From positions 9,424-73,423 of the forward strand of contig CAZFND010000002.1 in assembly GCA_964520645.1 (NCBI GenBank): a stretch of 64,000 bases of DNA, given 5' to 3'. The position numbers were made by a program, and so were the translations under genes. A model generated the notes under the pieces. The model was not told the origin of the DNA and did no database searches. It saw nothing but the letters and a program-made list of their open reading frames with translations. Positions 18,437-58,011 of this stretch are shown here, piece by piece (position 1 is the stretch's first letter; every line of letters begins with the position of its first letter). The stretch comes from an uncultured Candidatus Saccharibacteria bacterium. Lineage in GTDB: Bacteria > Patescibacteriota > Minisyncoccia > Phycocordibacterales > JAKAEA01.

Positions 18437-18440
18437 ATAT

Positions 18441-18857
18441 TTAGAGTTTGATATTGAGTAAGTCGGGTATTCTTGTTAAATCTGGATTAATTGTAGTTAA
18501 GAGTAGATATGAAATAGCGATAAGGAGCATTCCCCACAATGTACGCTGAATAATTGTCTTCCCCTCCAGTTTATTAGAGTATGCATCAGTAGACATATAA
18601 AGAAGCCCGCCATAAATAATAACAACAACAGCAAGTATTGATGTGATACCGATAGCAATAAAGAACATTGCTCGGATATATCCTGGCAAATCTGTAGGAA
18701 CAGGATTGCCCGTATTGTCTTTTATTGGTGCCAAAGGAACGTATGTTGTGTTATCTAATGCTGTTTGTGCCTGAGCAGTTCCAATAAGAATAGTATTAAA
18801 CAAGACTAAGCTGAGCAGTGCTACCATTCCCCATTTTTTTGAGATAGATGTCATCAT
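18441..18857 (-). CDS. VirB2/TrbC-like pilin candidate
   Basis: 138 aa: signal peptide (…GTAQA-QT) then two hydrophobic helices separated by a short polar loop, the architecture of T4SS pilins; found within VirB4 operon. Confidence 0.35.
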   Translation of the reverse strand: MMTSISKKWGMVALLSLVLFNTILIGTAQAQTALDNTTYVPLAPIKDNTGNPVPTDLPGYIRAMFFIAIGITSILAVVVIIYGGLLYMSTDAYSNKLEGKTIIQRTLWGMLLIAISYLLLTTINPDLTRIPDLLNIKL

Positions 18858-19888
18858 TGTGCCTTAAAATTCATTGTTACCCCGCTTCCTGCATACTGAA
18901 GCAATCCTGTTGGAGATTTTATAGAAACACTTACGTTTGATGCCCCACTTGTTCCTTGAGGAGGACGAAGAGTAATCATGTTTGTGCTATTTACTTGAGA
19001 TACAGGACTGCCGTTAATTGACCAGCTGTAATTGAGAAGTGTACCATCGTGAGCTGTTGGTGTACTAAAGTAGTATGGTGCAGCTTTTACTCTAATTTCA
19101 GCGTTCTTCAAATCATATGATGATCCCAATGCTTGATTGTAGCGTGTACCATAAAGTGGATTGTCTTCGTACATAAGGACTACAGGAGCTTGAGGGTTAA
19201 TACTTACACGTCCAATACCTGAGAAACTTACAGCAGAATCTGCTGATGTTACTTTTACAGAAATGTTAAGTGGTCGTAGGATAATAGATCCTTGAAGGCG
19301 AATACTGTCTTTGCCATATCCAGAAGCTGAACCAATAACACCGCTATCAGTTTCCCAGGTGTACACAAGCGTTTTGGGATCTGCCATTACTCCATTGACT
19401 ACATAATTTGGGAGAGCTGCTACGGTGATTTCTCCTTGGTATGGGAAAAGTCCCTTCCCTTTATAAAATGGTGGTGTATATGTATGTGCATCCCACACTA
19501 GATCTACTTCAGCGGGAGAAATAGTGATAGTTTTAATGATTGGAAGTCCAGAAGATGTAATAATTGCTGCCGCAACTTCCTTTGTTGTTCCATTTGCTCC
19601 CGCTTGTACTACTACTGAGGTAAGTCCCTTCCCCGAGTTGATCTTAGTACCATTTATAGACCATATAATTGTCGTGGTATTTAGATCAATAGAAAAACTT
19701 TTAATACTAACTGTTGTATTTTGATTTGGTTTAGGAAATTCAGGATTTATTTGAATAGTAACTGGATCATTACCCGGCAATACTTGTGCCTGGGTACTTG
19801 GAGCAACAACAAATAAGGATAGAGCTATGAAAATTCCTATGACAAACGTGGTTTTGATGTTCATGGGAAGAATAATTGTTCTATACAT
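18854..19888 (-). CDS. secreted beta-rich protein, unknown function (T4SS-like operon)
   Basis: Signal peptide …APSTQA-QV; Ig-like/beta-sandwich composition. Confidence 0.4.
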   Translation of the reverse strand: MYRTIILPMNIKTTFVIGIFIALSLFVVAPSTQAQVLPGNDPVTIQINPEFPKPNQNTTVSIKSFSIDLNTTTIIWSINGTKINSGKGLTSVVVQAGANGTTKEVAAAIITSSGLPIIKTITISPAEVDLVWDAHTYTPPFYKGKGLFPYQGEITVAALPNYVVNGVMADPKTLVYTWETDSGVIGSASGYGKDSIRLQGSIILRPLNISVKVTSADSAVSFSGIGRVSINPQAPVVLMYEDNPLYGTRYNQALGSSYDLKNAEIRVKAAPYYFSTPTAHDGTLLNYSWSINGSPVSQVNSTNMITLRPPQGTSGASNVSVSIKSPTGLLQYAGSGVTMNFKAQ

Positions 19889-19932
19889 TATACTATACCT
19901 TCTATCTATAGCACTGTGTATTACGTATTACC

Positions 19933-20391
19933 CTACTCTGCGTTTTTTCGGGGCACGGTAGCTATTCTTCCTGATGTACCCTGCACAGTGTTTCTGTTGG
20001 GTTTTATGCTTCGCTCGGTGATACCTGGTTGTTTATTATAAATAGCCTGAGTTTTATTTAATGCCTTTTCTCCCATCGGGATTTGTTCTTTTGCTATCTG
20101 TTCTCCATTAATAATAAGAATATTCAACAACACACCCAATGTAATTTCGGGTAGTATACTGAGAATAGGAATAAACCCAATAATAAACGACACCACTACG
20201 CTACCCATAAGTTTATTATTTTTTGTAAAAGGAAAACCTAATTCTCTAAACCAGAAAAAGAAAATAAGCCATGCGAGTACATCAACCACAATGTTTACTA
20301 TTGGAATGAGGCTTATAAGATCAAGCACAGCTGCAGTACAGATCATTGCTAATGCTGTTACGGTAGATATTTTTTTTACTGAGTTACTCAT
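19933..20391 (-). CDS. small polytopic membrane protein (T4SS-like operon)
   Basis: 3-4 predicted TM helices; 4 bp from VirB4 stop. Confidence 0.4.
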   Translation of the reverse strand: MSNSVKKISTVTALAMICTAAVLDLISLIPIVNIVVDVLAWLIFFFWFRELGFPFTKNNKLMGSVVVSFIIGFIPILSILPEITLGVLLNILIINGEQIAKEQIPMGEKALNKTQAIYNKQPGITERSIKPNRNTVQGTSGRIATVPRKNAE

Positions 20392-20393
20392 AG

Positions 20394-22190
20394 TTATGAC
20401 GTCATGTCTTCCTTTGCCTTCTTAATTGCAAGAATTTGAGATGGGTCAGAGGTAATAATTTGATCCTCAGTATATGAAGCAATGATCTTAATGGCGACGT
20501 GCTTTACACCTGCAAAGAAAATTCCCTCCCCCACTGCAGATTCAAGCAACAAATATTTTTCTTCGTCAGTAAGACTGAAGGTTTGTTGAAGTTTGTCTAT
20601 TGATGATGGAGATTGCTTAAGGAGAAGCTGGATAGATGAGTTTGTAATAATAGGAAGTCCGTATGGAGACTTAAGGAAATCATCCACGTCTTGAGTAATT
20701 GTCGCAAGACCGAGGTAATACTTTCGTCCTCGCTTAGCAAGACCAAGCAAGAATGATGCGGTATCTTCTGATTTCATCATCCACCATGCTTCATCAATTA
20801 CGAGCAATCGCTTCTTAATATTCTTTCGAATAGTGTTCCAGATATAGTGAGTCACTATATACATAGCAATAGGCTTAAGTTCATCTTCCATGTCTCGTAC
20901 TGAGAAGACTATGAACTTTTTGTTCATATCTACGTTTGTTGGCTGATTGATGAAGCCTGACCAAGTACCCTTTGTGTATTTAGAAAGTCGCTGAACGAGT
21001 GATCCCCCTCCTTCCATACCACTCAATACCATTTCAAAGTCAGAGAGAAGTGGTGGTTCGTTTTTTGAGAAATCACTTTCTGACGTAATGTCTTTGAGTG
21101 CATATGTTTCGGTGATAGCACGGTCGATAATAGCATCTTCTTCTGGAGTGAGGCCTCCCATCATAATGCGGAAAAGGCCTACAAGATTAATAATATTGGA
21201 TCGCAATACACTTGCTGGAGATTCATCTGGTCCTATAGGAGGAAGATCGAAGGGATTGATGTGGTGTTCTGAGTTAAGAGATATGTTGAAGTAGCGCCCC
21301 CCTGTTGCCTCAGCGAGGTATTCGTATTCTCGTTCTGGGTCAATAACAATAACTTCAGTATCAAACATGAGGGTTCGGAGAATTTCGAGCTTTGTTGTAT
21401 ATGATTTTCCAGAACCTGACTTGGCGAAGGTAATGGAATTGTAGTTTTCGAGAGAAAATCGATCAAAGAGGACCAAGCTTGAGTTGTGACGATTGATTCC
21501 ATAGAGTATTCCCCTATCTGACGTAAGGTCAAATGATACGAATGGGAATAAACTTGAAAGTGGAGATGAATTGAGCTTTGACGTCACAGCTAATTCATCA
21601 TTCAAGAGCGGAGTCATTGTTCTAAATCCTTGTTCTTGTTGGAAAAGTGCAGGCTTTACGTAAATAAGCTTAGATTCAAGCATTGATTTTATTTCCGACT
21701 CTACTTTATCCAATTCTGCTTCTGAATCTCCATAAATAGAAATATAAAGCCCAACATCGAAGAGCTTTTCTTGTGCTTGTTGAAGCTGATCTCGAAGATT
21801 TTCGAGGTCTTGGTAGGCGGTGTCGAGCATTGGGTCTCGGACGAGGCCCTTCTCTTCTCGAATAGATATCTGACTTTGTACTTCAGCTACTTTTTTCTGA
21901 AATTGTCTCAATACTGCTGCTGTTTCGATGGGATTGATATAAATAGAAACGTCGAAAATCTTATCAAGATTGATAATAGGAGAAAACCAACTTTCCATAA
22001 GAAAGCGTGGGTATGAAATAACGAAGAATGTTCGTACTATTTTTTCTCCCAAGTTAAGAGACTTTGGAGATACCTTAAGTGCAGATGGTGCAATAATATC
22101 CTTTAATTCAAGGGCAGCAGCTTCATACATCTGATTTGGAAGGAATTGAAGTGGTTCTTCTTTCTTTTTTAAAAAATCAAAAATACCCAT
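20394..22190 (-). CDS. VirB4/TraC/CagE-family conjugative ATPase (ATPase portion)
   Basis: Walker A FAKSGSGKSYTT, VIDPEREY, Walker B LLVIDEAWWM, TQDVDDF; AAA_10-type domain. Confidence 0.8.
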   Translation of the reverse strand: MGIFDFLKKKEEPLQFLPNQMYEAAALELKDIIAPSALKVSPKSLNLGEKIVRTFFVISYPRFLMESWFSPIINLDKIFDVSIYINPIETAAVLRQFQKKVAEVQSQISIREEKGLVRDPMLDTAYQDLENLRDQLQQAQEKLFDVGLYISIYGDSEAELDKVESEIKSMLESKLIYVKPALFQQEQGFRTMTPLLNDELAVTSKLNSSPLSSLFPFVSFDLTSDRGILYGINRHNSSLVLFDRFSLENYNSITFAKSGSGKSYTTKLEILRTLMFDTEVIVIDPEREYEYLAEATGGRYFNISLNSEHHINPFDLPPIGPDESPASVLRSNIINLVGLFRIMMGGLTPEEDAIIDRAITETYALKDITSESDFSKNEPPLLSDFEMVLSGMEGGGSLVQRLSKYTKGTWSGFINQPTNVDMNKKFIVFSVRDMEDELKPIAMYIVTHYIWNTIRKNIKKRLLVIDEAWWMMKSEDTASFLLGLAKRGRKYYLGLATITQDVDDFLKSPYGLPIITNSSIQLLLKQSPSSIDKLQQTFSLTDEEKYLLLESAVGEGIFFAGVKHVAIKIIASYTEDQIITSDPSQILAIKKAKEDMTS

Positions 22191-22191
22191 A

Positions 22192-22842
22192 TTAGCTTAA
22201 TTTAATTGGTTTTTCGGTCTCACCAGGATTGAAAAGCTTGTAAAATAGTTCGACTACTTCTTCGGTACCAAGCTGTGCGACACGGATACCGCAGCGTGTT
22301 AATCCTTGCTCTACTACAGAAATACGCTCTTCAAGCTGTGCTCTACTCTCTTCAAAGAGTTCATCATCCTTTTTTCGTGCCGCATCCCCTTCCTTCTTTT
22401 TAAATGGATTAAGTGAAAGTGAAGAAGCTCCTGTCTTAAGAAGTGCGGGAGAATATGGAATCACAATAAAGAAACTTTTTGTCATGATATTGGTAGTGTC
22501 TGTAAAGTTCTTGATGAATCCAATATATTCTTGTGTTTGGATTTTCATGAGGTCAGATGCTTGTTTCTTTTTTCGTTCTTCAAGAAGCGCAATATAAGGA
22601 GCAATATTGAGTCGGCGAGATTCGATGAATATTTGGATCGAGAAATCGAGTGAGTTTAATAAATCCTGAAATTGAGTCAAAATAGCTCCCTGCTCGTCTT
22701 CTGACTTAAGCGCAAAGTTGAGAGATGAAGCAAGAATAATAGCTCGCATTGAGCCGTCTTTAAGAATAGCCAAGCCATCTCTAATTTCTTTTATCGGTAC
22801 AAAATCTTGTGTTGATTTTCCAGCAAGAGGTGCCATATTCAA
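22192..22842 (-). CDS. VirB4 N-terminal domain encoded as separate ORF (split virB4)
   Basis: 216 aa with Gram-positive VirB4 N-terminal pattern (PIKEIRDGLAILKDGSMRAIIL…). Its stop TAA sits 1 nt before the ATG of the ATPase ORF; combined length 814 aa matches full VirB4. Confidence 0.5.
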   Translation of the reverse strand: MNMAPLAGKSTQDFVPIKEIRDGLAILKDGSMRAIILASSLNFALKSEDEQGAILTQFQDLLNSLDFSIQIFIESRRLNIAPYIALLEERKKKQASDLMKIQTQEYIGFIKNFTDTTNIMTKSFFIVIPYSPALLKTGASSLSLNPFKKKEGDAARKKDDELFEESRAQLEERISVVEQGLTRCGIRVAQLGTEEVVELFYKLFNPGETEKPIKLS

Positions 22843-22884
22843 TTATTGTATCACTACTTACTATGAATCCCCAGTGAATATCTT

Positions 22885-23319
22885 TTATTCTTCTTCAGGT
22901 TTTTGTGCTGGGGCAGTCCCCTTTGTGTCGAGACTCCATGTCATATCTTTCAATTTGCTATTAGAAATATTTGGGATAATAGAATTGGGACTGTTTGTGA
23001 AATTTACAGGGATACTTTTGGTAACCGTTTCTTCTTTTTTTCTCCAGATATAAAGCTTAGGACCAAAGTAATACGTAATTGCTGATTCGACGACAAAGAT
23101 GAAGGGTTTGTTATTTACTTTATAGAATGCTAACGCTACTGCAAATGCAGCAACAGGAATTATCAGCAAGATTGCTAAATAGAAAGAGATTGGAGATACT
23201 GAGAGATAAATAATCAATGACAACCCTGCCCCACCGATAAGGTAGATAAACTGACGAAATGTTAATGGGCCGAAGATTTTGTCTTCAACTTCAATAAATT
23301 GAGGAACTTGGTACTTCAT
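22885..23319 (-). CDS. PrgI/TcpE (VirB3-like) family membrane protein
   Basis: N-terminal …EDKIFGPLTFRQFIYLIGGAGLSLIIYL… followed by two TM helices, the PrgI-family architecture; immediately upstream of virB4. Confidence 0.5.
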   Translation of the reverse strand: MKYQVPQFIEVEDKIFGPLTFRQFIYLIGGAGLSLIIYLSVSPISFYLAILLIIPVAAFAVALAFYKVNNKPFIFVVESAITYYFGPKLYIWRKKEETVTKSIPVNFTNSPNSIIPNISNSKLKDMTWSLDTKGTAPAQKPEEE

Positions 23320-23348
23320 ATAACCTTATTTTCTCATGAGGCTTACTT

Positions 23349-24095
23349 TTATTCAATCACTTCTCGATACGGATCTTTATTAAGGAGTTCATTACGAGGA
23401 GAACCACTTGGCAATTCTGCATTGTGAGGAGCTTGTGGAAGGTTTTCAGGGATCTTCACGTCTTGTTTTGGCATACTTGTTGTTGCGCTCAGTCGAGTAT
23501 TCATAATAGAAGGCGCTGCTGGGGTCACAGGTCGAGTGTAAGCTGTGGTTACTTGCTTTAAGGGAGTAATATTCTTTACTGCTTGAGCAACATCCTGTGC
23601 GGTAAATTGTGGTTTTGGCGCAGTAGTCATTTGGCTAGGAGTTGAGATAGGCTTTTGTACTTGAGAAAGAAGAATAGATGGCGCACTCTTTTGTGTTTGT
23701 GGCGCGCTCGGTGTGCTATATGTCATCTGAATCTTTTGAGCGTTCATTGCTTGGATAGATGTGGGAGTGGGTTCAGTCTTCTTTGCCTCCCCTTCGAGAA
23801 GTGTATGTGCTGGCGCTAGAATGACATTACCTACATCAAGTACTACACTATTTGCATCTTCAGGGCTTACTTTATAGAGAGAGGTAAGATTTTGTGTAAA
23901 TTCTGTAATTGAGCTTACGCCAACAAGGAGAGCAAATATATTTTGTGAGAATGCATCAAATATAGAATCATCAATTCCATACTTCCCTGCTATAGCGTCT
24001 ACAGACTCTGCTACTTCATCTGACATGATGAAGTCTTGCAATGTGCCAGGAAGCTTTTGAAATGCATCATTTAGTTGTGTTTGAGTGTAATTCAT
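23349..24095 (-). CDS. hypothetical protein with globular N-domain and Pro/Thr/Gln-rich disordered C-terminus
   Basis: ORF in operon; low-complexity composition. Confidence 0.4.
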   Translation of the reverse strand: MNYTQTQLNDAFQKLPGTLQDFIMSDEVAESVDAIAGKYGIDDSIFDAFSQNIFALLVGVSSITEFTQNLTSLYKVSPEDANSVVLDVGNVILAPAHTLLEGEAKKTEPTPTSIQAMNAQKIQMTYSTPSAPQTQKSAPSILLSQVQKPISTPSQMTTAPKPQFTAQDVAQAVKNITPLKQVTTAYTRPVTPAAPSIMNTRLSATTSMPKQDVKIPENLPQAPHNAELPSGSPRNELLNKDPYREVIE

Positions 24096-24101
24096 AGTGT
24101 T

Positions 24102-26690
24102 TTAACCAACAAAATTATTTGACGGTGGTGTCTGAGGTGCTGGTTGTGGGTTATTTGCTGCTGTTTGTGTAGGTGCGGGTTGAGGAGCCGCCGCAGGTGC
24201 TGCATTTGCTGTTTGGTTAGTTTGTTGTGCTGTTGGGTTATTGAGATTGATCAATTTATCACGAGTCTCCTTACTTATTTTTTGATTTTTAGTAATAGCT
24301 AAGATATCTTGTTTATCAAAATATTTATTAATTTTAGGGTTCAAAAGAAGATCAGATGGTAAGTCCTTAAGAAGATTTTGCTCAATTTTTTGAACGTCCT
24401 CAGCTTTAATTTCCTCACCTTTTACAAGTTTGTCTCTAAGTTTATCTTCTGCTGCAGCAAGTTTTTCTTCCTGATTAAGTTTCTTTGATCGTGTCTTATC
24501 AAGGAAGTCTTGAGCAGCTTGCTTATGACCTTCTACTGTACTTCTAAATCGAACATTAAATCTTCCAGGAGTTGCTAACTGAGCAGCATACTTTTTCTGT
24601 TCCTCTTCTATCTCTCGTGCTTTTGCTCTCTCATATGATTTAAGCTTGGTTTCTGCTTCCTTAATTGCATCTGTACGTTTTTTGAGTTCTACAGGATCAG
24701 TTACTCCATTTGCTACAACTTCTGTATAATCAGATTTTGCTTTCTTTATAGCTTCTTTACTATTTGTAATATTCTGTAGAGTTTCATCTGAAGCCTTGCC
24801 TACACTTAGAATATCATTTTCTCCTTGCTTCTTACGTGTTTCTAATACAGCTTTATATCCCCCTACCCCAGTATTAGTATTCAAGCCAAATTTTTCTCCT
24901 GTCTTTGTGTTTCGAGCGTCAAAGCTTGCTTTAGCAAGTTTTTCGGCAGTGGCAAGTTTTGCTTCAGCTGTTTTTCGAGTTATTGCATTTGCTGAAAGCG
25001 CATCTTTTCTCCATTGTTCTTCATTACTCTTTAGAGTTGTAAGAGCTCGTTTACCTACTGTATTACGCAATGCTGCTGCTGTAGCGCCGGCTGTTGCACC
25101 TCCTGCTGCACGTTTAGAGTATGAAGTAATTCTGTCTGTTCCCCACTTTCCTACTGTACCCACTATTGCTGCACCTTGAGTTGCATAGCTTTTTGCAACA
25201 TTTGTTGCCACATGAATGAAGACGATAACAAGAATAAAGTTGATCACAATACCCGTGTTGCTACCCACAGAGTCTACATTGAGTGCGTCGGAGAACCCGC
25301 CACTTGCCCCCGTCATTTTCTTAAGATTATCTAAGAGTATAAAGAGTACCCAGAAGAGTGCCATAAAGAGAGGAGCAAAAATAAGCTGGCCCATGAGGGT
25401 ATCCCACCATTTTTTTGCTGTTGCCTGAGTTGCAGGGAGCGTCCACGCCACAAAGGCTATAGGAGATAGAACAAGAAGGACAATAAGGACGACAAATCGT
25501 AGGACAAACAACCAGGCAATAGTAAGAAACGTAAATGCTGTAATAAGCATGAAGACAGATCCTCCTATAGCAATAAGAAATATCTTGTCATAGCCTGTTT
25601 GTGCGGATGCTTTTGATGGATCAAGCCCCATTCCTCCGTAGATAGTTGCAAGGCCAACTGAGTTCATGATTTTTCCTCCAAATCCTTTACACTGAACGCC
25701 TGCAAATTTCTCACATGCATATTGGGTGTTTTGGTCTACTGCGAGCGCTCTATAAAAACCTAGGGTTACAATGTTTGAGGCATCGATTGCTGCTTTTGTA
25801 AAAAAGAGACTGAAGTTAATAAGAAGACCAATAATAATTATTTTTATAAGAGTGTTTTTTGTTGCCCCAGTCAATCTTCCTAGGATAATAAGCACGGTGA
25901 TATACAGCAGGGCAAAAATAAATATCATATTTGCTAGATCTCGAAAAACTGTCCAGGCTGTAGTGATTGAAGGTGCTCCTTTTATAAACTCAGCCATGTT
26001 AAGGACAGTATATGTAAGGATTTGGTTTAGAATAAGAGCACAGAGGCCAAGTATGTATCCACAGAGTGTCAGGATAATATAAGCAACTCCTGCAACAACC
26101 TGCTTTACACATATCCACCAATTGATAAATGGAATTCCATAACTAGTACCAAAACATACGTTTTCTTGAGATGATTTTGCATTGCTGACATCTTGTTGTG
26201 TTGCTGCGTTTCCATTATTTACCTGATTGTTGTGTGCTTGAGCAGCAACTAAATCTGTGTTTGCACCAGCATAATCTCCTTGCTGAGCCTTATTTATTGC
26301 ACTATCACTAAGAGTTTGCACCTGAGTTGCTTGTCCTTGTGCTAGGGTTACTTGCCTATTTGCCGAATCAAGGGCTCGTTGAGCATTATCACAATTAGTG
26401 TTTGTTGTACACGCAGTTCCACTGAGGTTTGGGTATGCATCACGAGCTTGTTGTGCATTATTTGCAACTATTTTTGCATTTTGTAGATTTGTATTTGCAG
26501 TTGCAACTTGTTGGGCAGCAGCAGCTTTTATTTGATCAACTTTTACTGTATCAACTTGAGGTGTGGGTGTTGAGGGTTGTGTTGTTTGAGCTTCTGCTTG
26601 ATTTAATAAAAGTGTAGAGAAGTTGAAAGGCGCAGCAAAAGTGCTGATGAGAAGAAGTGCTGTAAATAATGATGTAAGTATTTTTTTCAT
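24102..26690 (-). CDS. VirB6/TrbL-like polytopic membrane protein with Q/A/N-rich N-tail and charged coiled-coil plus P/Q/A-rich C-tail
   Basis: 862 aa; signal peptide, ~7-8 TM helices in residues ~180-520, long K/E-rich helical region, terminal PQ-rich repeat. Confidence 0.5.
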   Translation of the reverse strand: MKKILTSLFTALLLISTFAAPFNFSTLLLNQAEAQTTQPSTPTPQVDTVKVDQIKAAAAQQVATANTNLQNAKIVANNAQQARDAYPNLSGTACTTNTNCDNAQRALDSANRQVTLAQGQATQVQTLSDSAINKAQQGDYAGANTDLVAAQAHNNQVNNGNAATQQDVSNAKSSQENVCFGTSYGIPFINWWICVKQVVAGVAYIILTLCGYILGLCALILNQILTYTVLNMAEFIKGAPSITTAWTVFRDLANMIFIFALLYITVLIILGRLTGATKNTLIKIIIIGLLINFSLFFTKAAIDASNIVTLGFYRALAVDQNTQYACEKFAGVQCKGFGGKIMNSVGLATIYGGMGLDPSKASAQTGYDKIFLIAIGGSVFMLITAFTFLTIAWLFVLRFVVLIVLLVLSPIAFVAWTLPATQATAKKWWDTLMGQLIFAPLFMALFWVLFILLDNLKKMTGASGGFSDALNVDSVGSNTGIVINFILVIVFIHVATNVAKSYATQGAAIVGTVGKWGTDRITSYSKRAAGGATAGATAAALRNTVGKRALTTLKSNEEQWRKDALSANAITRKTAEAKLATAEKLAKASFDARNTKTGEKFGLNTNTGVGGYKAVLETRKKQGENDILSVGKASDETLQNITNSKEAIKKAKSDYTEVVANGVTDPVELKKRTDAIKEAETKLKSYERAKAREIEEEQKKYAAQLATPGRFNVRFRSTVEGHKQAAQDFLDKTRSKKLNQEEKLAAAEDKLRDKLVKGEEIKAEDVQKIEQNLLKDLPSDLLLNPKINKYFDKQDILAITKNQKISKETRDKLINLNNPTAQQTNQTANAAPAAAPQPAPTQTAANNPQPAPQTPPSNNFVG

Positions 26691-26693
26691 CGT

Positions 26694-28709
26694 TTATTTT
26701 ACAATTACCGTTCGAATCGCCGTAGTTGCTGGTAATCCCCCACTGTCCTTCACGTCATAATTGATGACATACGTACCCGGAACTGTTGTATTTACTGTAC
26801 CTGTTACTACTACTTGCGCAGTGAGTGTTGCTTCGTCATCAGTCTCATCCTTTGCCACATATCCTGGTTCTGTGAATGTTGAGTTCAGTGGAATTGTCAT
26901 CTGGGTTTGTCCTTTCAAACCTATAATTGGAGGGTTGTTAGCAAAGACTTCCATTTCGGGAATAGTAAGATATTCAACTTTATTATATGTAGATTGAATT
27001 CGAACATAGCGTCCTTTTATATTTGGGGGAAGATTAAGGGTATATGGATTTTGATAGTTTTGTATGAGAACATCACTTGTCCAAATAGGCAGTGCACTTC
27101 CTCCTGAACGATTTCCCTGACTGTCACTTGGTGCAGTGTCGAACACTTGAACAACAAATGTAAGTTTCGTACCAAGCCCATATGACCATGGGTCATGTCG
27201 CTGATAAACAACAATTTTACTGAGGTCAAATAGTTTGTTCAAATCTACTTCAATCCATTGAGCTGGATTACTAGGAGGTCCGAAATATTCATTCATTGGT
27301 CCTGTATATCCTACATATGCTTGCCAATCTGCTTGATCACCATTTACAAGTTTTGAAGGATAATAACCATTACTACCGCTATCTTTACGGATACTTGATG
27401 CATATACTGATTTATTTAGTGCAACATTCACCTGAGGTTGGACATATGTTGATCCACTAGGAGTACTAATTGCTATATCTTCTGGTTTATATGATTGAAC
27501 TTGGTTAACATTATCCTGATAAGTATTGTATGAAGAAGAACAAGCAGCTTGAGCATCATTGGTAATCTGACCTATATTAGTATTAGATGATGAAGTTTGT
27601 TTACATGCTGATTGAAGGACTTGTTGTACAGTAGGTGGTGTGTGTGTACCTCCCCCTCCTCCTGAAGAGCGATTTGCACCAAGCAATCCCCCAGCACCAC
27701 TAATAACTGTCTGGAAGAGTTGGTTGGCAAGAGCATTAAAGATTTTATCAAGATCATCTGCAAGGCCAAGCTGCTCAGCGGGTACATCGAGCTGATTTTG
27801 GAGTGTGCCACCAATCACCTTTCCTGGTGTTTGTATCTGGCAATCATCTCCAGGAGAGCGTCCTCCAAAGCTTGCATTGTTACCTGCTACTCCAAATGAT
27901 CCTGATCCTCCATATTGGTTATAGCTTGTTCCATCTGCTGATGTACATTCTGACCATGAAAGGAATCCCCCACCCCAACTAAGTTTTGCAGCTTCAATTC
28001 CTTGTCGGCCACCAATTCGAGCACCCATTTTTGACGATGCTTTAAGGTAACTTCCGTATGGATTGTTATTATCACTCACACTAATTTTAAACCAGTCATC
28101 CCAGGTTTGTTGTTCGAAGTTGGTGATGGCACCATCAATGTTGTTGAGAACTTGTGTGAGTGTACAACGTGGAGTCCCAGGACCTTCTGAACCGTATGAA
28201 TAATCGAGCGCAAGTTGAAGTTGAATTTGTAGTTTAAATGGACTACAGAGAAATGCGAGATCAGAGCCCAAGATGAATTCTCCAGCAATTTGGTCTGCTA
28301 TATCGAGGGCAAATTGGCCGGGATTGCTAATAAATGCGGGTTTACCTTCAAATCCAGAGTTGATCCAAGTAACGATTTGCTGAGTCATTTGTTGAAGGAT
28401 AAATTTTCCAATTGCGAGAGCTAGACCGTGCTCGATACAGTCCTTCATGAGTGTTGATTGACTTGCTCCTGCTTGGGCTCCAGAGGTAAAGATCTGTCCA
28501 GCAGCAGATACTGGTACTGAGAGTGCTGCTGCGGCAGCAGATGCAGTAGTGTTCAATCCTACCGCTGCAAAAAATTGTGGAAGACAACTTGAGAAGCCGG
28601 CTTCTGCCTTTTTGGGTGGCATAGTAAGAAGACTAAAAGGCACTACAAGTATAATTGCGAGGAAGAGGCTTATTATTTTTTTATACATTGATACGTGCAT
28701 ACTCTCCAT
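26694..28709 (-). CDS. large secreted protein with discoidin (F5/8 type C)-like and C-terminal DUF5011-type Ig-like domains
   Basis: Signal peptide; region …QWIEVDLNKLFDLSKIVVYQRH…GRYVRIQ resembles F5/8-type-C; C-terminus …TVPGTYVINYDVKDSGG…RTVIV resembles DUF5011. Confidence 0.45.
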   Translation of the reverse strand: MESMHVSMYKKIISLFLAIILVVPFSLLTMPPKKAEAGFSSCLPQFFAAVGLNTTASAAAAALSVPVSAAGQIFTSGAQAGASQSTLMKDCIEHGLALAIGKFILQQMTQQIVTWINSGFEGKPAFISNPGQFALDIADQIAGEFILGSDLAFLCSPFKLQIQLQLALDYSYGSEGPGTPRCTLTQVLNNIDGAITNFEQQTWDDWFKISVSDNNNPYGSYLKASSKMGARIGGRQGIEAAKLSWGGGFLSWSECTSADGTSYNQYGGSGSFGVAGNNASFGGRSPGDDCQIQTPGKVIGGTLQNQLDVPAEQLGLADDLDKIFNALANQLFQTVISGAGGLLGANRSSGGGGGTHTPPTVQQVLQSACKQTSSSNTNIGQITNDAQAACSSSYNTYQDNVNQVQSYKPEDIAISTPSGSTYVQPQVNVALNKSVYASSIRKDSGSNGYYPSKLVNGDQADWQAYVGYTGPMNEYFGPPSNPAQWIEVDLNKLFDLSKIVVYQRHDPWSYGLGTKLTFVVQVFDTAPSDSQGNRSGGSALPIWTSDVLIQNYQNPYTLNLPPNIKGRYVRIQSTYNKVEYLTIPEMEVFANNPPIIGLKGQTQMTIPLNSTFTEPGYVAKDETDDEATLTAQVVVTGTVNTTVPGTYVINYDVKDSGGLPATTAIRTVIVK

Positions 28710-28712
28710 GTA

Positions 28713-29714
28713 TTATCCAACTAAATGGGCAAACGAATACCCTGGCTCCCCTTGCCCAAAGACTATCCCCTGTAATTTAAAGTATAAATTTACTGCCTGG
28801 AAAATAACTCCAGTATCCGTTGCTACATCTTGATATCGCTTTACTGCAGCAAGTGTAATAACAGGATCCTTGAGGAGCTTAGCAAGACCTTGATCTACCT
28901 CTATTACCTGGCTGAAATTATTGAGGATATTTATGTGAAGTGATACCGCACTACTTGGAACAGGTACGGAGAGAAATCCCTTAAGCATATTTTGGTATGA
29001 TGTGATGATTGCATTTAGTTGGGCAATATCCTTTGGATCTTGGCTATCAACTGCGCGTTCAATAATAATCAATTCATTTTCAGGATTTTTGGGAGCGTTA
29101 GTCAAAATGACTTGGCCCATTGCATTGCCATATGCGCGAAGTGCATCAGCAGAATTTGAAGAATCGATTCTAAAATCTTTTTGGGTGTATGTTTTTGCAG
29201 ATGAAACACCAAATGTAGTTCGTCCGATGATATTTGCTGCTATTTCTTCTTGAATTTCAGGTGTAATGTTTCCACCAGTCTTGCGAAGACTCATATAGTC
29301 ACTAAATACTTCTCGAGCGAGTGCTTGAGTTGCTGTTTCATCTTTTGATGAAGTAGTTGTTGTGGCTGCAGTTGCAACAGTTGATCCCCCATTATTCTTA
29401 TCTTTAGGACCTTTTACAAGAGGGTTTCGCTCAGCTTTTATTTCTGCACCATCTGATGTGCCGTCTCCATCTGTGTCAGCCTTACGAGGATCTGTACCAA
29501 TGAGCACCTCTTCCCAGTCAGGAAGACCATCATTGTCTGAATCTTTTGTATTTACCTCAGTTTGAATATTATTTTCAGGAATTACTGAAAGAATTTGTTG
29601 TCGTGAACTTATTGTTGTAGATTTTGGAGAATAAAGAGCCGCAAAAACAATACCGCCTACTGCAGCCACACATGCAATAATGATTGGTATAATTTTTTTT
29701 GAAGGTAAGGCCAA
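28713..29714 (-). CDS. membrane-anchored protein with thrombospondin type-3 (Ca-binding) repeats; first gene of T4SS-like operon
   Basis: N-terminal TM; DSDNDGLPDWEEV…DTDGDGTSDGAE repeats. Confidence 0.45.
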   Translation of the reverse strand: MALPSKKIIPIIIACVAAVGGIVFAALYSPKSTTISSRQQILSVIPENNIQTEVNTKDSDNDGLPDWEEVLIGTDPRKADTDGDGTSDGAEIKAERNPLVKGPKDKNNGGSTVATAATTTTSSKDETATQALAREVFSDYMSLRKTGGNITPEIQEEIAANIIGRTTFGVSSAKTYTQKDFRIDSSNSADALRAYGNAMGQVILTNAPKNPENELIIIERAVDSQDPKDIAQLNAIITSYQNMLKGFLSVPVPSSAVSLHINILNNFSQVIEVDQGLAKLLKDPVITLAAVKRYQDVATDTGVIFQAVNLYFKLQGIVFGQGEPGYSFAHLVG

Positions 29715-29796
29715 GGTATTGCAATACTATTTCCATATATTATAGCAGCTCATGGGGAAATGTTGTTAATTTCCTGGGGATAAATCGTGATATACT

Positions 29797-30900
29797 GTGG
29801 ACATGTATCGAAAAATTTATTTTTTCTACGGTGTGATTCTATTTTTCTTACTTTTTACGGGTTTTGCATCTATTGAGTCAGTGCATGCACAGGTTTCTTC
29901 AAATAATTTTCTATTTACTAGAAGTTTGAAGCTTGGAGACAATAACAATGATGTAATAATGCTTCAAAAAGTGTTAAACAGTAGCCCAGATACCCAGATT
30001 GCCTTCTCAGGAGTGGGGTCACCAGGCCAAGAAACTACTTATTTCGGCCTATTAACCCAACGAGCGGTCATAAAATTCCAAAATAAGTATGCTTCAGAAG
30101 TTCTTTTCCCCGGAGGGTTTGTGTCAGGAACTGGCTTTGTAGGGCCATTAACTATCAAAAAACTCAATAATGTATCAGGTATTTTTATTGTATCACAACA
30201 AAATAACCAAAATATACTTAATCCTAGACCTATTTTTGATATTTATAGTACAGATAAGAAAATCCAAGATGCTCAAATTTCGATAGTTCAACAAAACAAA
30301 AATACCCAAAATAAGCCCGATGTAAGCGCTATTTTTAATGATCTCTATAGAGTAGCCATCTATACACTCTCTAAATATAGTGGCGTAAGTGGTAGTACTT
30401 TCACGATAAACGGGGCTGGATTTGATACAAATGGCTCAAACACAGTGTATTTTGGTGGAACATACTCTATAAATGCGACAGTAGTAAATGAAAATGTACT
30501 TTTAGTAAAGATTCCACAAATTCCTGCAGGAAGATACGATCTAGCCGTAAAAAGTAGCTTTGGAATAAGTAATACTAAGTTTTTTGTTGTGACTACTCCC
30601 TCCTCGCCTCAGGTAAGTGTGGCTTCAATTAGCCCTAGTACCGTACGTTTTGGGGATACTATCACGGTAACTGGCGTAGGATTTACCACTAAAAACAATG
30701 AAATTCAAACTAATTTAGGAATTTTTAAGAATATCGGCTCTCCTGATAGCAAAACTATGACATTTACGTTTTCCCCAGAAGTTCTTAGAGATGCAATTGC
30801 AAGCGGAAGGAGTTATAATCAAACGATGAAAGTTACCCTCTATGTAGTAAATGATAATGGTATAACCGTTACCCCTCAATCTTTTAATGTTTCTTTTTAA
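29797..30900 (+). CDS. secreted protein with peptidoglycan-binding-like domain and IPT/TIG-like beta-sandwich repeats
   Basis: Signal peptide …VHA-QV; PG_binding_1-like segment (VIMLQKVLN…GLLTQRAVIKFQ); repeated GxTFTINGAGF / TITVTGVGF modules; divergent from operon promoter. Confidence 0.45.
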   Translation: MDMYRKIYFFYGVILFFLLFTGFASIESVHAQVSSNNFLFTRSLKLGDNNNDVIMLQKVLNSSPDTQIAFSGVGSPGQETTYFGLLTQRAVIKFQNKYASEVLFPGGFVSGTGFVGPLTIKKLNNVSGIFIVSQQNNQNILNPRPIFDIYSTDKKIQDAQISIVQQNKNTQNKPDVSAIFNDLYRVAIYTLSKYSGVSGSTFTINGAGFDTNGSNTVYFGGTYSINATVVNENVLLVKIPQIPAGRYDLAVKSSFGISNTKFFVVTTPSSPQVSVASISPSTVRFGDTITVTGVGFTTKNNEIQTNLGIFKNIGSPDSKTMTFTFSPEVLRDAIASGRSYNQTMKVTLYVVNDNGITVTPQSFNVSF

Positions 30901-31285
30901 TTACATGCTCTTCCTTAATATCATTAAAAAATCATTTGTAGTAACGCTTATTACCCTATTTATCTTTTTCTTTAGTGTGGCTCCTGTATGGGCACAAGGT
31001 GTAAATCCATTCAATTTTGGTGGAATAGTAGCTTTTTCCTATCTTTGTACATGTTCACTCAATTGGGTTGTTACGATTGTTGGTCCTAAGCCTGCTATAT
31101 TGAGTTATTATTACACACCTCAATTTGCGAATTTTCAGCTTCCGCGTATGGGAGTATGGACATTAGGAACATACACACCTGGTGCTGTATGTCTTGATTG
31201 GTATCCCGGATTTCCACCTTTTTGTGCTCCTTCATGGATGGTTCCCTTTGGAACGATCTTACCTCTCGTAGGAACGAGTTTATAA
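30887..31285 (+). CDS. small secreted Cys/aromatic-rich protein
   Basis: Signal peptide …APVWA-QG, 6 Cys in ~95 aa mature part; start may be ATG at 30905. Confidence 0.35.
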   Translation: MFLFNYMLFLNIIKKSFVVTLITLFIFFFSVAPVWAQGVNPFNFGGIVAFSYLCTCSLNWVVTIVGPKPAILSYYYTPQFANFQLPRMGVWTLGTYTPGAVCLDWYPGFPPFCAPSWMVPFGTILPLVGTSL

Positions 31286-34569: not shown

Positions 34570-34826
34570 ACTCTATTTTTTATTTTTTGTGGAAGTCATT
34601 TTTTATCCCCAAGGGTGTGGATAGCAGTCGATTGACATAAGATTCTCATAGTTTATAGTTACTGAGTCATCTAATTTTCGATGACTCAGTGCAAATTCCG
34701 ACCGCTTTTTTATGGCTTAATGAAGCCATTTTATACCGACACACTGTTTTATCCCTTAAAATTAGGCTTATTTTACGCATTCCCCAGGATCCTAAGCAGT
34801 CTGTTCAAAAATCTTCGACTGTTTGG

Positions 34827-35846
34827 GTGATAAAAGTGATATTTATAGGGCTTTTTACGGTCCAGATGAGTATACCGCATACCGTAGAAGCTAGTATTAT
34901 ATCTATAATTAGCCATATATTCTCCCCTACGACTGTAGCGGCTGAGGAGAGTAATGGTGATACTTCCCAAAAAATGGCTCTATTAGAGGCTCCTGTTAAC
35001 CCTACCGCTACTGGAAGTATCCCTTCTCCTAAGGTAAGTGTAGTGGATAATGCCCTTATGCCAGAAGGAGTAGTGCCGCCTACTGCTGCTATTTCTCATA
35101 CTCATGAAGATGATAGTGAAAGTAATGCTATTACTACCTATACCGTAAAAGCAGGAGATAATATCTCTACAATAGCCGAAAATAACGGTATTTCTATAAA
35201 CACTATACTCTGGGCGAATAATTTAAAGAGAGACGTTACTCTTAAGGTAGGTCAAAAGCTCGTTATCCTACCTATTTCAGGTATTAGTCATAAAATAGTA
35301 TCAGGAGATACCCTTCAGGCTATTGCTATCAAATATCATGGTGATGCAGCAGAAATTGCGGCATACAACGATATCGTAGACAGTAAACTTCAAATTGGGG
35401 ATATTATTGTTATCCCTGATGGTGAACCTCTCGCAAAACCATCAACAGGTATTAGTGTTACTACTCCTGTTTCAAATATATCTAATTCTGGATATTACAT
35501 CCGCCCTATCAAAGGTGGTACAAAGACGCAGGGTATTCATGGAAGTAATGCTGTCGACTTAGCAGATGCCTGTGGAACGCCTATTTATGCAGCAGCAGCT
35601 GGAAATGTGATGATTAGTAAGAGTAGTGGATTGTGGGATGGTGGCTACGGTAACTATGTAGTAATTAGTCACCCTAATGGTTCTCAGACCCTATACGCTC
35701 ACATGACCAAGGCGATCGTAAGTGAAGGTGACTCTGTAACTCAAGGCCAAATGATAGGTACTATTGGTGCAACAGGTAAAGTAGCTGGTGCTACAGGATG
35801 CCACGTTCACTTTGAGATTAGAAACGGTGGTAGAAATCCTTTCTAG
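34827..35846 (+). CDS. LysM-domain M23 family peptidase
   Basis: LysM motifs (YTVKAGDNISTIA…; HKIVSGDTLQAIA…) and M23 catalytic region (GIHGSNAVD… HVHFEI). ORF extends up to 34689 (GTG); probable start GTG 34827-34836 before signal-like segment. Confidence 0.7.
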   Translation: MIKVIFIGLFTVQMSIPHTVEASIISIISHIFSPTTVAAEESNGDTSQKMALLEAPVNPTATGSIPSPKVSVVDNALMPEGVVPPTAAISHTHEDDSESNAITTYTVKAGDNISTIAENNGISINTILWANNLKRDVTLKVGQKLVILPISGISHKIVSGDTLQAIAIKYHGDAAEIAAYNDIVDSKLQIGDIIVIPDGEPLAKPSTGISVTTPVSNISNSGYYIRPIKGGTKTQGIHGSNAVDLADACGTPIYAAAAGNVMISKSSGLWDGGYGNYVVISHPNGSQTLYAHMTKAIVSEGDSVTQGQMIGTIGATGKVAGATGCHVHFEIRNGGRNPF

Positions 35847-45620: not shown

Positions 45621-45692
45621 GCGCCCGTAGCTCAACGGATAGAGTACCGGTCTTCGGAACCGTGGATGTGGGTTCGATTCCTGCCGGGCGCA
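45621..45692 (+). tRNA. tRNA-Arg (anticodon TCG)
   Basis: Manual cloverleaf: acceptor GCGCCCG/CGGGCGC, T-loop TTCGATT, anticodon loop CTTCGGA; 27-43 mismatch lowers confidence in anticodon call. Confidence 0.6.
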
Positions 45693-45782
45693 CAGTATTC
45701 TTTGGAAAAAGAATATAAATAATATATTCGTTTACGAAGTTTTGGCGGGCGTGTCCCGCCGAAGTTCGCAGAGCGAACGTAG

Positions 45783-45853
45783 GCGGGTATGGTTTAGTGG
45801 TAGAATACGTCCTTGCCAAGGATGAGACGGGAGTTCGATTCTCCCTACCCGCA
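45783..45853 (+). tRNA. tRNA-Gly (anticodon GCC)
   Basis: Acceptor GCGGGTA/TACCCGC, anticodon loop TTGCCAA, T-arm GGGAG-TTCGATT-CTCCC. Confidence 0.75.
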
Positions 45854-46640: not shown

Positions 46641-46684
46641 GCTTTTTTTGATATTTCACACTCCTGTGCTAGTATTCATGGAAT

Positions 46685-46757: not shown

Positions 46758-46763
46758 CACGTA

Positions 46764-47081: not shown

Positions 47082-47108
47082 TAGTTTTTTGATATAGTAT
47101 TTCTCATT

Positions 47109-58010: not shown

Positions 58011-58011
58011 T

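Follow-up and report, generated by a model that had tools for sequence, protein, structure and literature searches.

The locus studied here raises the question of whether three adjacent genes for exported proteins with binding-type modules (A, B and C) encode parts of the T4SS whose operon they lie in or beside, cargo of that system or mere neighbours of it. An earlier note had picked them out within the window (the whole stretch of 64,000 nucleotides analysed), and its observation is confirmed by exact open reading frames: gene A (26694..28709, minus strand, 671 aa), an exported multidomain protein and second gene of the operon; gene B (28713..29714, minus strand, 333 aa with a TTG start), a bitopic membrane protein and first gene of the operon; and gene C (29797..30900, plus strand, 367 aa with a GTG start), a divergently transcribed secreted protein. 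Their homologues number 87, 238 and 243, respectively. The interpretation offered with it, namely that all three are substrates or surface components used to bind another cell or its wall, is partly supported. On balance we think it probable that A and B are Sec-exported, extracytoplasmic parts of the T4SS rather than its cargo, with A in a VirB5-like role that may involve host contact.

The window covers the origin-proximal dnaN, dnaA, rpmH, rnpA and yidC region of a chromosome of Paceibacteria/Parcubacteria type (Patescibacteria). Directly downstream of A, and like it on the minus strand, lies a gene for a VirB6-like polytopic membrane protein (24102..26690, 862 aa, at least six hydrophobic segments), which is itself without a Pfam match, while TrbL_3 matches its orthologue in related locus L001. 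The operon genes from 17195 to 24095, all on the same strand, are g248 (23349-24095), PrgI/VirB3 (22885-23319, Pfam PrgI), a 216-aa ORF for a TrsD-like N-terminal piece of VirB4 (22192-22842, NCBIfam VirB4_plasma and TrsD), the VirB4 ATPase (20394-22190, Pfam P-loop_TraG, AAA_10 and DUF87), g152 (19933-20391), the secreted g344 (18854-19888), g138 (18441-18857), which is VirB2-like by topology and whose L002 orthologue matches Pfam TrbC weakly, and g413 (17195-18436). Using Ti-plasmid TraG and TraA as queries, neither T4CP nor relaxase was detectable within the window. Together with the VirB4, TrsD and PrgI matches, TrbL_3 on the VirB6 orthologue, the dnaA/dnaN/yidC surroundings and agreement with a published description (Quinonero-Coronel et al. 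2025, PMC12102498), this identifies the T4SS that the earlier note had placed here as the already described chromosomal, vertically inherited, relaxase-less and MPF-FATA-like operon of Patescibacteria. The published system likewise has VirB4, a separate TrsD-like VirB4-N, PrgI/VirB3, a VirB6-like protein and a VirB2-like pilin, adjoins dnaA and has no relaxase or T4CP nearby. Unlike the window, however, its component list holds nothing corresponding to A or B; adhesins were not detected for the Patescibacteria T4SS (PMC12102498), and TSP3, PF16403, discoidin and DUF4141 go without mention in the text or supplements examined of that report. A and B are, in other words, conserved, exported and previously unremarked first genes of a described operon of ultrasmall, Paceibacteria-type bacteria, whose T4SS is, according to a summary in PMC12857230 of Wang et al. 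2023, essential in Southlakia epibionticum.

That A and B belong to this operon follows from their arrangement in 83 A-anchored related loci from many candidate phyla, where a fixed order (uvrD–ksgA–B–A–VirB6–PrgI–TrsD–VirB4–…–VirB2-like) provides the linkage of orthologues to virB4 that the earlier note had proposed as a check. B immediately precedes A in 81 of the 83 loci and VirB6 is present in 80, the remaining three being contigs that end at A; in every informative locus, i.e. where the contig runs on past A, VirB6 comes next. The stop of B and the start of A are separated by a median of 2 nt and the stop of A and the start of VirB6 by a median of 3 nt (3 nt each in the window itself). 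B and A are the two genes nearest the promoter in a T4SS operon of rigidly conserved layout.

Gene A combines a family-wide core with variable additions. Its 87 word-indexed homologues reach E-values down to 1e-187; an exhaustive profile search returned 6833 cluster representatives at E<=1e-3, and relatives occur in 429 species-representative genomes. A hydropathy scan predicts a signal peptide (residues 1-37, 28599..28709) that ends at an A-x-A site (…PPKKAEA/G), with A37, the -1 residue of the predicted cleavage site, invariant among 74 homologues; aligned N-termini show P-x-K-A-x-A followed by Q/I-(P/V)-V-x-D. By the same N-terminal alignment, the mature N-terminal region (residues 38-94, 28428..28598) begins with a (Q)[WFI][VP]V.D..N..QN motif in most relatives, and the sub-lineage of the window's A carries an insertion ahead of 'SVPVSAAGQI'. 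The core proper (residues 95-340, 27690..28427) is covered by 87/87 homologues and has four conserved Cys residues and the motifs WINSGF.G.PAF … LCSPF … CTL … NNPYG … GFLS..C … C..TPG; it contains no known domain, with no sequence match in Pfam, NCBIfam or PDB, and its AF2 model is of low confidence (pLDDT 40-70). This Cys-containing stretch of about 250 aa is the only family-wide part of A, the C-terminal modules being common to only about 20 of the 87 homologues.

In the window's A, these modules are a discoidin or galactose-binding-like beta-sandwich (residues ~431-590, 26940..27419) and an Ig-like domain (residues 596-670, 26700..26924). The latter, PF16403 (Bact_surface_Ig-like, formerly DUF5011), scores 66.5 bits (cut-off 27) and is modelled by AF2 with pLDDT >90. 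For the former, Pfam F5_F8_type_C scores 28.4 on residues 447-575, barely above its cut-off of 28.2, and F5_F8_type_C_2 scores 27.5 against 27.8; despite such near-threshold scores, its AF2 model (pLDDT 75-96 over the module, >85 over the part that F5_F8_type_C matches) and Foldseek matches in the PDB to lectinolysin, SpX-3 and eel fucolectin/CBM32 (E 1e-8 to 1e-6, target TM up to 0.84) confirm, at the level of the model, a CBM32 or F-type-lectin-like fold and hence a putative carbohydrate-binding module. Both assignments of the earlier note for A (a discoidin-like domain and DUF5011) hold up, as does its description of B as carrying TSP3 repeats behind a membrane anchor; its label of 'eukaryote-like' modules does not, since the matched families (TSP3_bac, Bact_surface_Ig-like, CBM32/F-lectin-like) are bacterial. 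Known CBM32/F-type lectin modules from Gram-positive species (lectinolysin, S. pneumoniae SpX, the C. perfringens GH89 CBM32) have the same beta-sandwich fold and are likewise appended to a larger secreted protein, albeit with only 14-20% identity to the module of A and on carriers that are enzymes or pore-forming toxins rather than T4SS-operon proteins. Among 74 species homologues of A the discoidin module recurs in 3-4, PF16403 in 3 and TIG, PKD and InlK_D3 once each; PKD and Flg_new variants are also found among A homologues. Moreover, identity among homologues is 45-65% in the core as opposed to 24-42% in the discoidin domain. At the C-terminus of A, the lectin-like and Ig modules are additions specific to a lineage.

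B, by contrast with the modular end of A, is conserved as a whole. Its family is Patescibacteria-wide at about 320 aa, and nearly all of its homologues (E down to 1e-125) measure 300-350 aa. A single N-terminal hydrophobic segment found by hydropathy scan (residues 4-31, 29622..29705), modelled by AF2 as a helix at residues 8-27, is the membrane anchor; it is followed by two Ca-binding repeats of the bacterial TSP3 type (DSDNDGLPDWEE and DTDGDGTSDGAE; residues ~56-100, 29415..29549; Pfam TSP3_bac, 46.8 bits, cut-off 25) and by an extracytoplasmic, all-helical bundle domain of generic fold (residues 128-330, 28725..29333). TSP3_bac occurs in 112 of 113 family members, and D58, D60, D62, G63, D66, W67, E68, E69, D80, D82, D84, G85 and D88 vary little or not at all. 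The Ca-binding D-x-D-x-D-G-x-x-D repeat is shared with bacterial TSP3 surface proteins such as Myxococcus CglD and MtsD, but matches of the CglD/MtsD families to B are confined to the ~50-residue repeat region (25-26 bits versus cut-offs of 400-800), and B differs in being short, anchored and equipped with a helical-bundle ectodomain. We regard these repeats as Ca-binding structural repeats, not as a demonstrated adhesion module.

C stands apart from A and B. Behind a signal peptide (29797-29889, hydropathy scan) it has a borderline PG_binding_1-like segment (29944-30090) that scores 19.2 in the whole protein and 22.9 in isolation against a cut-off of 23, while many full-length C homologues pass. 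Where the earlier note saw TIG repeats, one TIG domain is clear (residues 188-255, 30358-30561; 41.4 bits, cut-off 20.9) and a second TIG-like or Ig-like domain is marginal (30619-30885; 20.0 bits, same cut-off). Many of its homologues (E down to 1e-79) combine PF01471 with PF01833. C is present in only 15 of the 83 loci (about one fifth), invariably placed between ksgA and B with opposite orientation, a position also held by 4/4 full-length orthologues examined. The end of C is overlapped by g132 (30887..31285, plus strand), which encodes 132 aa with a signal peptide (hydropathy scan) and four Cys, matches no Pfam or NCBIfam family and was found in 10 of the 83 loci; with an ORF of ~129-134 aa after C in L001 and L084-L086, it is the usual partner of C. 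By operon place, signal peptide and anchor, A and B support the idea of surface components tied to the secretion genes; C is a lineage-specific accessory neighbour of the operon, and C and g132 may be seen as an accessory pair, probably wall-associated, inserted in a variable ksgA|B slot.

What role might A play? Its only recurrent family matches are T4SS components: Pfam DUF4141 matches 12 of 74 homologues (best 5e-8; in L066, residues 21-50 at 31.8 bits, cut-off 30), and NCBIfam TrbJ models match 7, 3 and 1 (11/74), confined to the N-terminal ~60 residues. In hhalign, the A family aligns with pTiC58 VirB5 over 22 columns of the N-terminal motif (E 0.016), and pTiC58 TrbJ yields nothing. The window's own A has no DUF4141 or TrbJ match, and a profile search of the PDB with A finds no VirB5, nor does Ti VirB5 as query. 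The likeness thus rests on ~30-60 N-terminal residues including part of the signal peptide. These weak but recurrent matches, and its place directly upstream of VirB6, make A a candidate for a VirB5-like subunit of a tip or stalk, with host-binding modules that could be swapped, a hypothesis whose link is thin. VirB5/TrbJ and DUF4141 (TraI-position) proteins share with A a cleavable signal peptide, with many A relatives a similar stretch of the first ~20-40 mature residues, and with its gene the place upstream of a VirB6-type gene (virB5-virB6; trbJ-trbK-trbL; DUF4141 genes adjoining traJ in Bacteroides conjugative transposons); a VirB2-like pilin coexists in those systems too. On the other hand, A (520-670 aa) is 2-3 times larger than VirB5/TrbJ (~220-250 aa), has an unrelated Cys-containing core modelled with low confidence and, in the window, adds lectin and Ig modules to an N-terminus from which the likeness is absent, and beyond which it stops elsewhere.

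A scenario can nonetheless be envisaged in which B, anchored by its one N-terminal helix, displays two Ca-binding TSP3 loops and a helical-bundle ectodomain, and most likely acts as a structural or wall-spanning element of the T4SS, since anchor, loops and ectodomain are all conserved across the family. Cleavage after A-x-A would expose the N-terminus of A, which is VirB5/TrbJ- and DUF4141-like in most relatives, followed by a disulfide-containing core. In the R388 system, VirB5 is seated on VirB6 and projects its N-terminus; given that A is always directly upstream of VirB6 and that the operon has a VirB2-like pilin, A may dock on VirB6 in the same way and end up at the distal end of a pilus or stalk, where cells would meet. 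In the lineage of the window's A, its C-terminus would have gained a candidate sugar binder and an Ig-like domain, where other lineages have a PKD, a TIG or an internalin-like module or nothing extra, and such add-ons may tune which host surface gets recognised. An adhesion-type use is supported by expression data from methanogen-parasitising Paceibacteria, in which T4SS pilins and secreted proteins whose folds are of the PG-binding, Ig-like, galactose-binding and PKD kinds are highly expressed together (Kuroda et al. 2024, PMC10936435). These come from the same bacterial class as A and C and invite the same interpretation, although they were not placed in a T4SS operon and the likeness is one of module types. 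Judging from sequence, binding of another cell or its wall by A, B or C is plausible.

Synteny taken alone is a weak argument for a function shared with the T4SS, as housekeeping genes ksgA (78/83) and uvrD (72/83) are conserved at the locus almost as often as B and A. A, B and C might then be ordinary envelope or wall proteins that adjoin the T4SS only through an origin-proximal block frozen in Paceibacteria, all the more so as surface proteins at large often carry PG-binding, Ig and TSP3 modules, C is missing from ~80% of the loci and the ksgA|B slot also holds unrelated genes (UbiA, AAA_14/DUF4143). This appears rather unlikely to us: while ksgA directly adjoins B in roughly half of the loci, with both on one strand, its distance to B ranges from -16 to 3842 nt, in contrast to gaps of 2-3 nt for B-A and A-VirB6 in nearly all of them, VirB6 comes after A in every informative locus, and recurrent family matches of A are restricted to DUF4141 and TrbJ. 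Delivery of A, B and C to a host cell as T4SS substrates or effectors, the other option named in the earlier note, we hold to be very improbable, even though the genes lie in or beside a secretion operon, carry binding modules and belong to a relaxase-less system thought to serve something besides conjugation (PMC12102498), and Sec-exported cargo of a T4SS has a precedent in pertussis toxin (PMC12857230). All three proteins have N-terminal Sec signals or anchors (B being held in the membrane) which makes them exported components as opposed to classical T4SS substrates; Ti-plasmid queries detected no T4CP in the window; and A and B, which hold a constant position, are universally present and have a well-conserved core, are unlike typical fast-turnover effectors. 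Being as conserved and as tightly coupled as VirB6, they look like machine parts.

Another reading makes the core of A an undetected enzyme, e.g. a VirB1-like wall or glycan hydrolase that its lectin and Ig modules would direct to polysaccharide, in the manner of glycoside hydrolases bearing CBM32. In its favour, glycoside hydrolases and toxins are the typical carriers of CBM32/F-lectin modules, few Patescibacteria T4SS loci have a VirB1 homologue (PMC12102498) and AF2 models the core, at low confidence, as partly helical plus a small sheet. We consider this improbable, however: no hydrolase family in Pfam, NCBIfam or PDB matches the core, its near-invariant positions hold chiefly Gly, Pro, aromatic residues, Asn and the four Cys, with neither a conserved acid pair nor a conserved His, and most A family members are without any CBM. 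Besides, a peptidase is already conserved at the locus, a protein with two LysM and a Peptidase_M23 domain (Pfam) encoded upstream of uvrD (34689..35846, plus strand), with a counterpart in the corresponding position in L001-L003 and L084-L086. LysM/M23-containing VirB1-like proteins are known in Patescibacteria and associated with VirB4 in Paceibacteria (PMC12102498), and the one found here is a possible candidate for a VirB1-type wall-remodelling partner of the T4SS.

Our survey of related loci identifies protein A (671 aa, 26694..28709(-)) and protein B (333 aa, 28713..29714(-)) as core genes of the Paceibacteria T4SS operon, as conserved in it as VirB6. Six-frame ORFs of 83 loci (80 species-representative, 3 assembly loci) were queried with the window proteins and returned the A core in 83/83, B in 81/83, the VirB6-like protein in 80/83, ksgA in 78/83, uvrD in 72/83, PrgI in 71/83, TrsD in 68/83 and VirB4 in 67/83; lower counts of the distal genes are explained by contig ends, and the three in which VirB6 is missing end at A. 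Gene order was constant: uvrD–ksgA–[C, g132]–B–A–VirB6–(g248)–PrgI–TrsD–VirB4–(g152)–g344–g138–g413–yidC (ORFs with a g are named by their length in aa). VirB6 comes right after A in 79/79 informative loci at a median gap of 3 nt, which is also the gap in the window, and B is separated from A by a median of 2 nt; the distance from ksgA to B ranges from -16 to 3842 nt. Together, these counts and the constant order bear out the linkage to the T4SS that the earlier note had proposed for A and B. As ksgA and uvrD are almost equally conserved at the locus, synteny alone does not prove function; it is the tight coupling, combined with a common envelope topology, that ties A and B to VirB6.

Relatives of the conserved region of A were found by profile search in 429 species-representative genomes, whose record titles all point to Patescibacteria, and the family comprises 6833 representatives of 50%-identity clusters at E<=1e-3 and 4205 at E<=1e-30. 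A tblastn search of 72,556 plasmids gave no match to an A homologue and thus nothing that would point to an origin on mobile elements. An exact look-up of the window A in assemblies likewise returned no record, and the bacterium is placed through its relatives, which bear Parcubacteria or Paceibacteria labels. Submitters gave roughly half of the related loci L004-L083 the title 'uncultured Candidatus Saccharibacteria bacterium'; these show exactly the Paceibacteria-type order of the records for Kaiser-, Zambryski-, Taylor-, Nomura- and Wolfebacteria, and their Saccharibacteria labels may be generic.

The operon (17195..29714, minus strand) lies after yidC and includes B, A, VirB6-like, PrgI, TrsD-like and VirB4 genes, all on the minus strand. 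Its VirB6-like polytopic protein (862 aa) has at least six TM-like segments and itself no Pfam match, and an orthologue matches TrbL_3. PrgI/VirB3 scores 44.9 bits with PrgI, and g138 (138 aa, minus strand) has a VirB2-like topology, its orthologue matching TrbC weakly. VirB4 is split (20394-22842) into a TrsD-like N-terminal protein (216 aa; VirB4_plasma, conju_CD1110 and TrsD matches) and an ATPase (598 aa; P-loop_TraG, AAA_10 and DUF87 matches) with 1 nt between them, an arrangement kept across related loci and already reported for Patescibacteria (PMC12102498). Using phmmer with Ti TraG and TraA, a search of limited sensitivity, we found neither a relaxase nor a coupling protein (T4CP) in the 64-kb window. 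The operon is the Patescibacteria MPF-FATA-like, dnaA-proximal and relaxase-less T4SS described by Quinonero-Coronel et al. 2025 (PMC12102498), and since that system is itself published, our locus is a member of a known system.

All three ORFs of the cluster, including the divergent C (367 aa, 29797..30900(+)), are present at exactly these coordinates, and homologue counts and best non-self E-values (87 and 1e-187 for A, 238 and 1e-125 for B, 243 and 1e-79 for C) show them to be real genes. Database versions of B (318 aa) and C (313 aa) start later than the window ORFs, the differences spanning 29670-29714 and 29797-29958, respectively, and the signal peptide is absent from the shorter C. As homologues extend over the longer N-termini, the long starts of B and C look correct.

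The modules assigned to these proteins in the earlier note were largely recovered. In A, the DUF5011 Ig-like domain (now PF16403) scores 66.5 bits against a Pfam cut-off of 27 with the full profile (1-71) covered; the discoidin (F5/8 type C) domain is borderline in Pfam (F5_F8_type_C, 28.4 bits versus 28.2) and agrees with both AF2 and Foldseek, being a beta-sandwich that is confident in the AF2 model and resembles bacterial fucose-lectin and CBM32 structures (E 1e-8, TM up to 0.84). Identity to the lectins is just 14-20% in the Foldseek alignments, and carbohydrate binding is predicted. B carries two TSP3_bac Ca-binding repeats (PF18884, 46.8 bits versus 25) behind a membrane anchor, seen as a single N-terminal helix at residues 4-31. 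For C, in which a PG_binding_1-like segment and two TIG-like domains follow the signal peptide, the first IPT/TIG repeat (PF01833) is clear at 41.4 bits against 20.9 and the second marginal at 20.0 against the same cut-off; PG_binding_1 (PF01471) reaches 19.2 bits with the whole protein and 22.9 with the isolated segment (cut-off 23), and is precomputed on many full-length C orthologues. It is the label 'eukaryote-like' that proved inaccurate, because all matched families are bacterial surface-protein modules.

Residues ~95-340 of A are the sole region common to all homologues, and contain the motifs WINSGF.G.PAF, LCSPF, CTL, NNPYG, GFLS and TPG as well as four conserved Cys. This core has no match in Pfam, NCBIfam or PDB, where the profile search returned noise alone, and its AF2 model (pLDDT 40-70) was left out of fold inference owing to low confidence. 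Every family member opens with a hydrophobic segment ending in P-x-K-A-x-A, the last Ala of which is invariant, and the predicted mature N-terminus in most members reads (Q)[W/F/I][V/P]V.D..N..QNTITA. Family length has its mode at ~530 aa, compared with 671 aa for the window copy. Of 74 species-level homologues, 3-4 have discoidin, 3 have PF16403, and one each has TIG, PKD_4 and InlK_D3; PKD and Flg_new variants are found among the 87 homologues. Within the module-bearing sub-lineage, identity to the window A is 45-65% in the core, 24-42% in the discoidin domain and 13-36% in the linker. In the window A, discoidin and Ig modules form a lineage-specific extension.

B presents a different picture. 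TSP3_bac is found in 112/113 relatives, and the acidic residues of the consensus D-x-D-x-D-G-x-x-D are invariant across all 113, so the repeats, predicted to bind Ca, belong integrally to the conserved protein and are not an adhesion module acquired later. The ectodomain is a helical bundle (AF2 pLDDT >90) with conserved residues Y140, Y195, E214, Y240, H260, N265 and D283, and in our reading B is a structural partner anchored in the membrane.

What, then, might A contribute to the operon? When its 74 homologues were scanned against the whole Pfam and NCBIfam libraries, two recurrent families alone emerged, both on the N-terminus: Pfam DUF4141 in 12/74 (best E 5e-8) and TrbJ, whose NCBIfam models hit 7, 3 and 1 homologues (11/74; best E 2.3e-5). 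One DUF4141 match, at residues 21-50 of the A homologue from locus L066, exceeds the gathering score (31.8 bits versus a cut-off of 30). The similarity spans just ~30-60 residues, part of the signal peptide included, and the window's own A, which has an insertion at its N-terminus, matches neither DUF4141 nor TrbJ. With hhalign, the N-terminal profile of A aligned to Ti VirB5 over 22 columns ('ALPKKAEAQWVVTDPGNIVQST' over 'LSVGPARAQFVVSDPATEAETL', E 0.016), and the A N-terminus gave nothing against pTiC58 TrbJ. Searching the same profile against PDB retrieved no VirB5, a negative that is weak given that Ti VirB5 itself matches no PDB VirB5 by sequence.

TrbJ is the P-type VirB5, and gene position adds to the likeness. 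virB5 precedes virB6 on pTiC58, and trbJ lies upstream of trbL; DUF4141 proteins adjoin traJ (VirB6-type) in Bacteroides conjugative transposons, and like VirB5, TrbJ and DUF4141 genes, that of A sits immediately upstream of a VirB6-type gene. The structure from R388 shows VirB5 as a pentamer sitting on that of VirB6, the N-terminus of VirB5 projecting in the manner of a pore-former. VirB5, however, is an elongated helical bundle of ~220-250 aa with a small appendage (TraC/TrwJ fold), whereas A has 671 aa and a distinct conserved core. From the N-terminal matches, the VirB6-adjacent position and the VirB2-like pilin we tentatively put A forward as a candidate VirB5-like subunit, a reading that we consider possible and still rather doubtful. 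A VirB5 is missing from the accounts of the Patescibacteria-clade system in Quinonero-Coronel et al. 2025 (PMC12102498) and in a 2025 nomenclature review, and it may be speculated, at similarly modest confidence, that the A family is the missing VirB5-equivalent, its C-terminus a plug-in site for host-recognition modules and B its Ca-dependent anchored partner. In such a scenario, Sec-exported A would dock on VirB6, prime assembly of the VirB2-like pilus and then ride at the pilus tip; its C-terminus would accept modules (lectin and Ig here, PKD, TIG, internalin-like or none elsewhere), and membrane-anchored B would assist in a Ca-dependent manner. If true, the module of A would help to set which host cell surface a Paceibacteria lineage attaches to and feeds from.

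The earlier note had left open whether A, B and C are surface components or substrates of the T4SS. Surface components they seem to be; that they are classical substrates is, to our minds, very improbable. Such substrates are cytoplasmic proteins lacking a Sec signal, which the coupling protein recruits by a signal that is internal or at the C-terminus, whereas a Sec-type hydrophobic N-terminus is present in each of A, B and C, and the search of the window gave no T4CP. Moreover, A and B have the traits of machine parts: both are universal, coupled and conserved in their core. It is the pertussis toxin, a precedent for Sec-exported T4SS cargo (PMC12857230), that keeps the probability above zero. 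Nor does A resemble the PrgB-type adhesins of Gram-positive conjugation systems, which are large, encoded with the T4SS and LPXTG-anchored: A ends in '…TAIRTVIVK' and has neither an LPXTG motif nor a C-terminal TM, and there was no match to a PrgB-type family in Pfam or NCBIfam. This agrees with the survey of Patescibacteria T4SS, which found no adhesins, PrgB-type included (PMC12102498).

C and g132, the latter small, secreted and containing four Cys, form a positionally stable, lineage-restricted accessory pair. They occur in 15/83 (C) and 10/83 (g132) A-anchored loci, always between ksgA and B and on the opposite strand, and it is this fixed position in few loci that marks them as accessory. 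In the reverse check, 4/4 full-length C orthologues were divergent beside B–A–VirB6 and followed by an ORF of ~130 aa. A putative wall-binding role of the pair is plausible. Presence of C does not correlate with the length of A (Mann-Whitney p = 0.17), and a promoter/terminator scan of the divergent B|C region gave fewer sites than shuffles.

The ksgA|B junction (29715-31279 in the window; L004-L083) is a variable insertion slot, without an insert in roughly half of the loci, ksgA abutting B (<120 nt) in 38/77. Its inserts include ~670-aa signal-peptide proteins without any family match (L017, L045, L046) and anchored proteins of 240-280 aa on the operon strand (L009, L053, L064, L080). UbiA and AAA_14/DUF4143 genes are inserted elsewhere, for which reason we rejected the idea of a dedicated 'adhesin slot'.

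Further genes may belong to the envelope part of the system. Both g344 (18854-19888, minus strand; conserved in 60/83 loci) and g413 (17195-18436, minus strand; 50/83) have a signal peptide or anchor, and g344, with a weak PKD-like match (E 0.013), may be another Ig-like extracellular component. A gene for a protein with two LysM domains and Peptidase_M23 (34689-35846) keeps its place upstream of uvrD in all relatives examined (L001-L003, L084-L086) and could be a VirB1-type wall-remodelling enzyme of the T4SS.

To our knowledge, Southlakia epibionticum is the one genetically tractable Patescibacterium. In the summary of Wang et al. 2023 given in PMC12857230, the T4SS is described as essential in this species, in connection with its epibiotic growth. 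In methanogen-parasitising Paceibacteria, Kuroda et al. 2024 (PMC10936435) saw high expression of T4SS pilins and of secreted PG-binding, Ig-like, galactose-binding and PKD-fold proteins, which they took as adhesion-related; the likeness of these to A and C lies in module types, and no link from the galactose-binding or PGBD genes of that study to A or C emerged. TSP3, PF16403, discoidin and DUF4141 are mentioned neither in the text nor in supplementary material of PMC12102498. New at the level of annotation are A and B as conserved operon components, the interchangeable C-terminal modules of A, predicted to be binding modules, and its putative TrbJ/DUF4141-like N-terminus. The observation behind the earlier note is confirmed and its interpretation partly supported. 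What is gained is better annotation and a testable lead on how T4SS and host meet, not a new kind of system: A and B are concrete candidates for the host-contact end of the Patescibacteria T4SS, the mechanistic part being inferred.

The window is chromosomal and origin-proximal, with dnaA, dnaN and yidC beside the operon, has a uniform GC content (35-41%) and also codes for polA, a PilB-like ATPase, ruvB, a class A PBP, rpmH and rnpA. Type IV pilus machinery is encoded in the same 64 kb as the T4SS: two T2SSE (PilB/GspE-type) ATPase genes lie at 4157-5833 and 56262-59229, and a T2SSF/PilC gene comes after the second. In the Kaiserbacteria loci L002 and L003, the T4SS operon holds a bAvd/23S_rRNA_IVP-type gene (14917-15315), of the family of accessory proteins of diversity-generating retroelements, flanked by its PrgI and TrsD-like genes, and no reverse transcriptase is listed in the 21-kb loci around it. 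Four tRNA genes are located on the plus strand of the window at 45621-47179.
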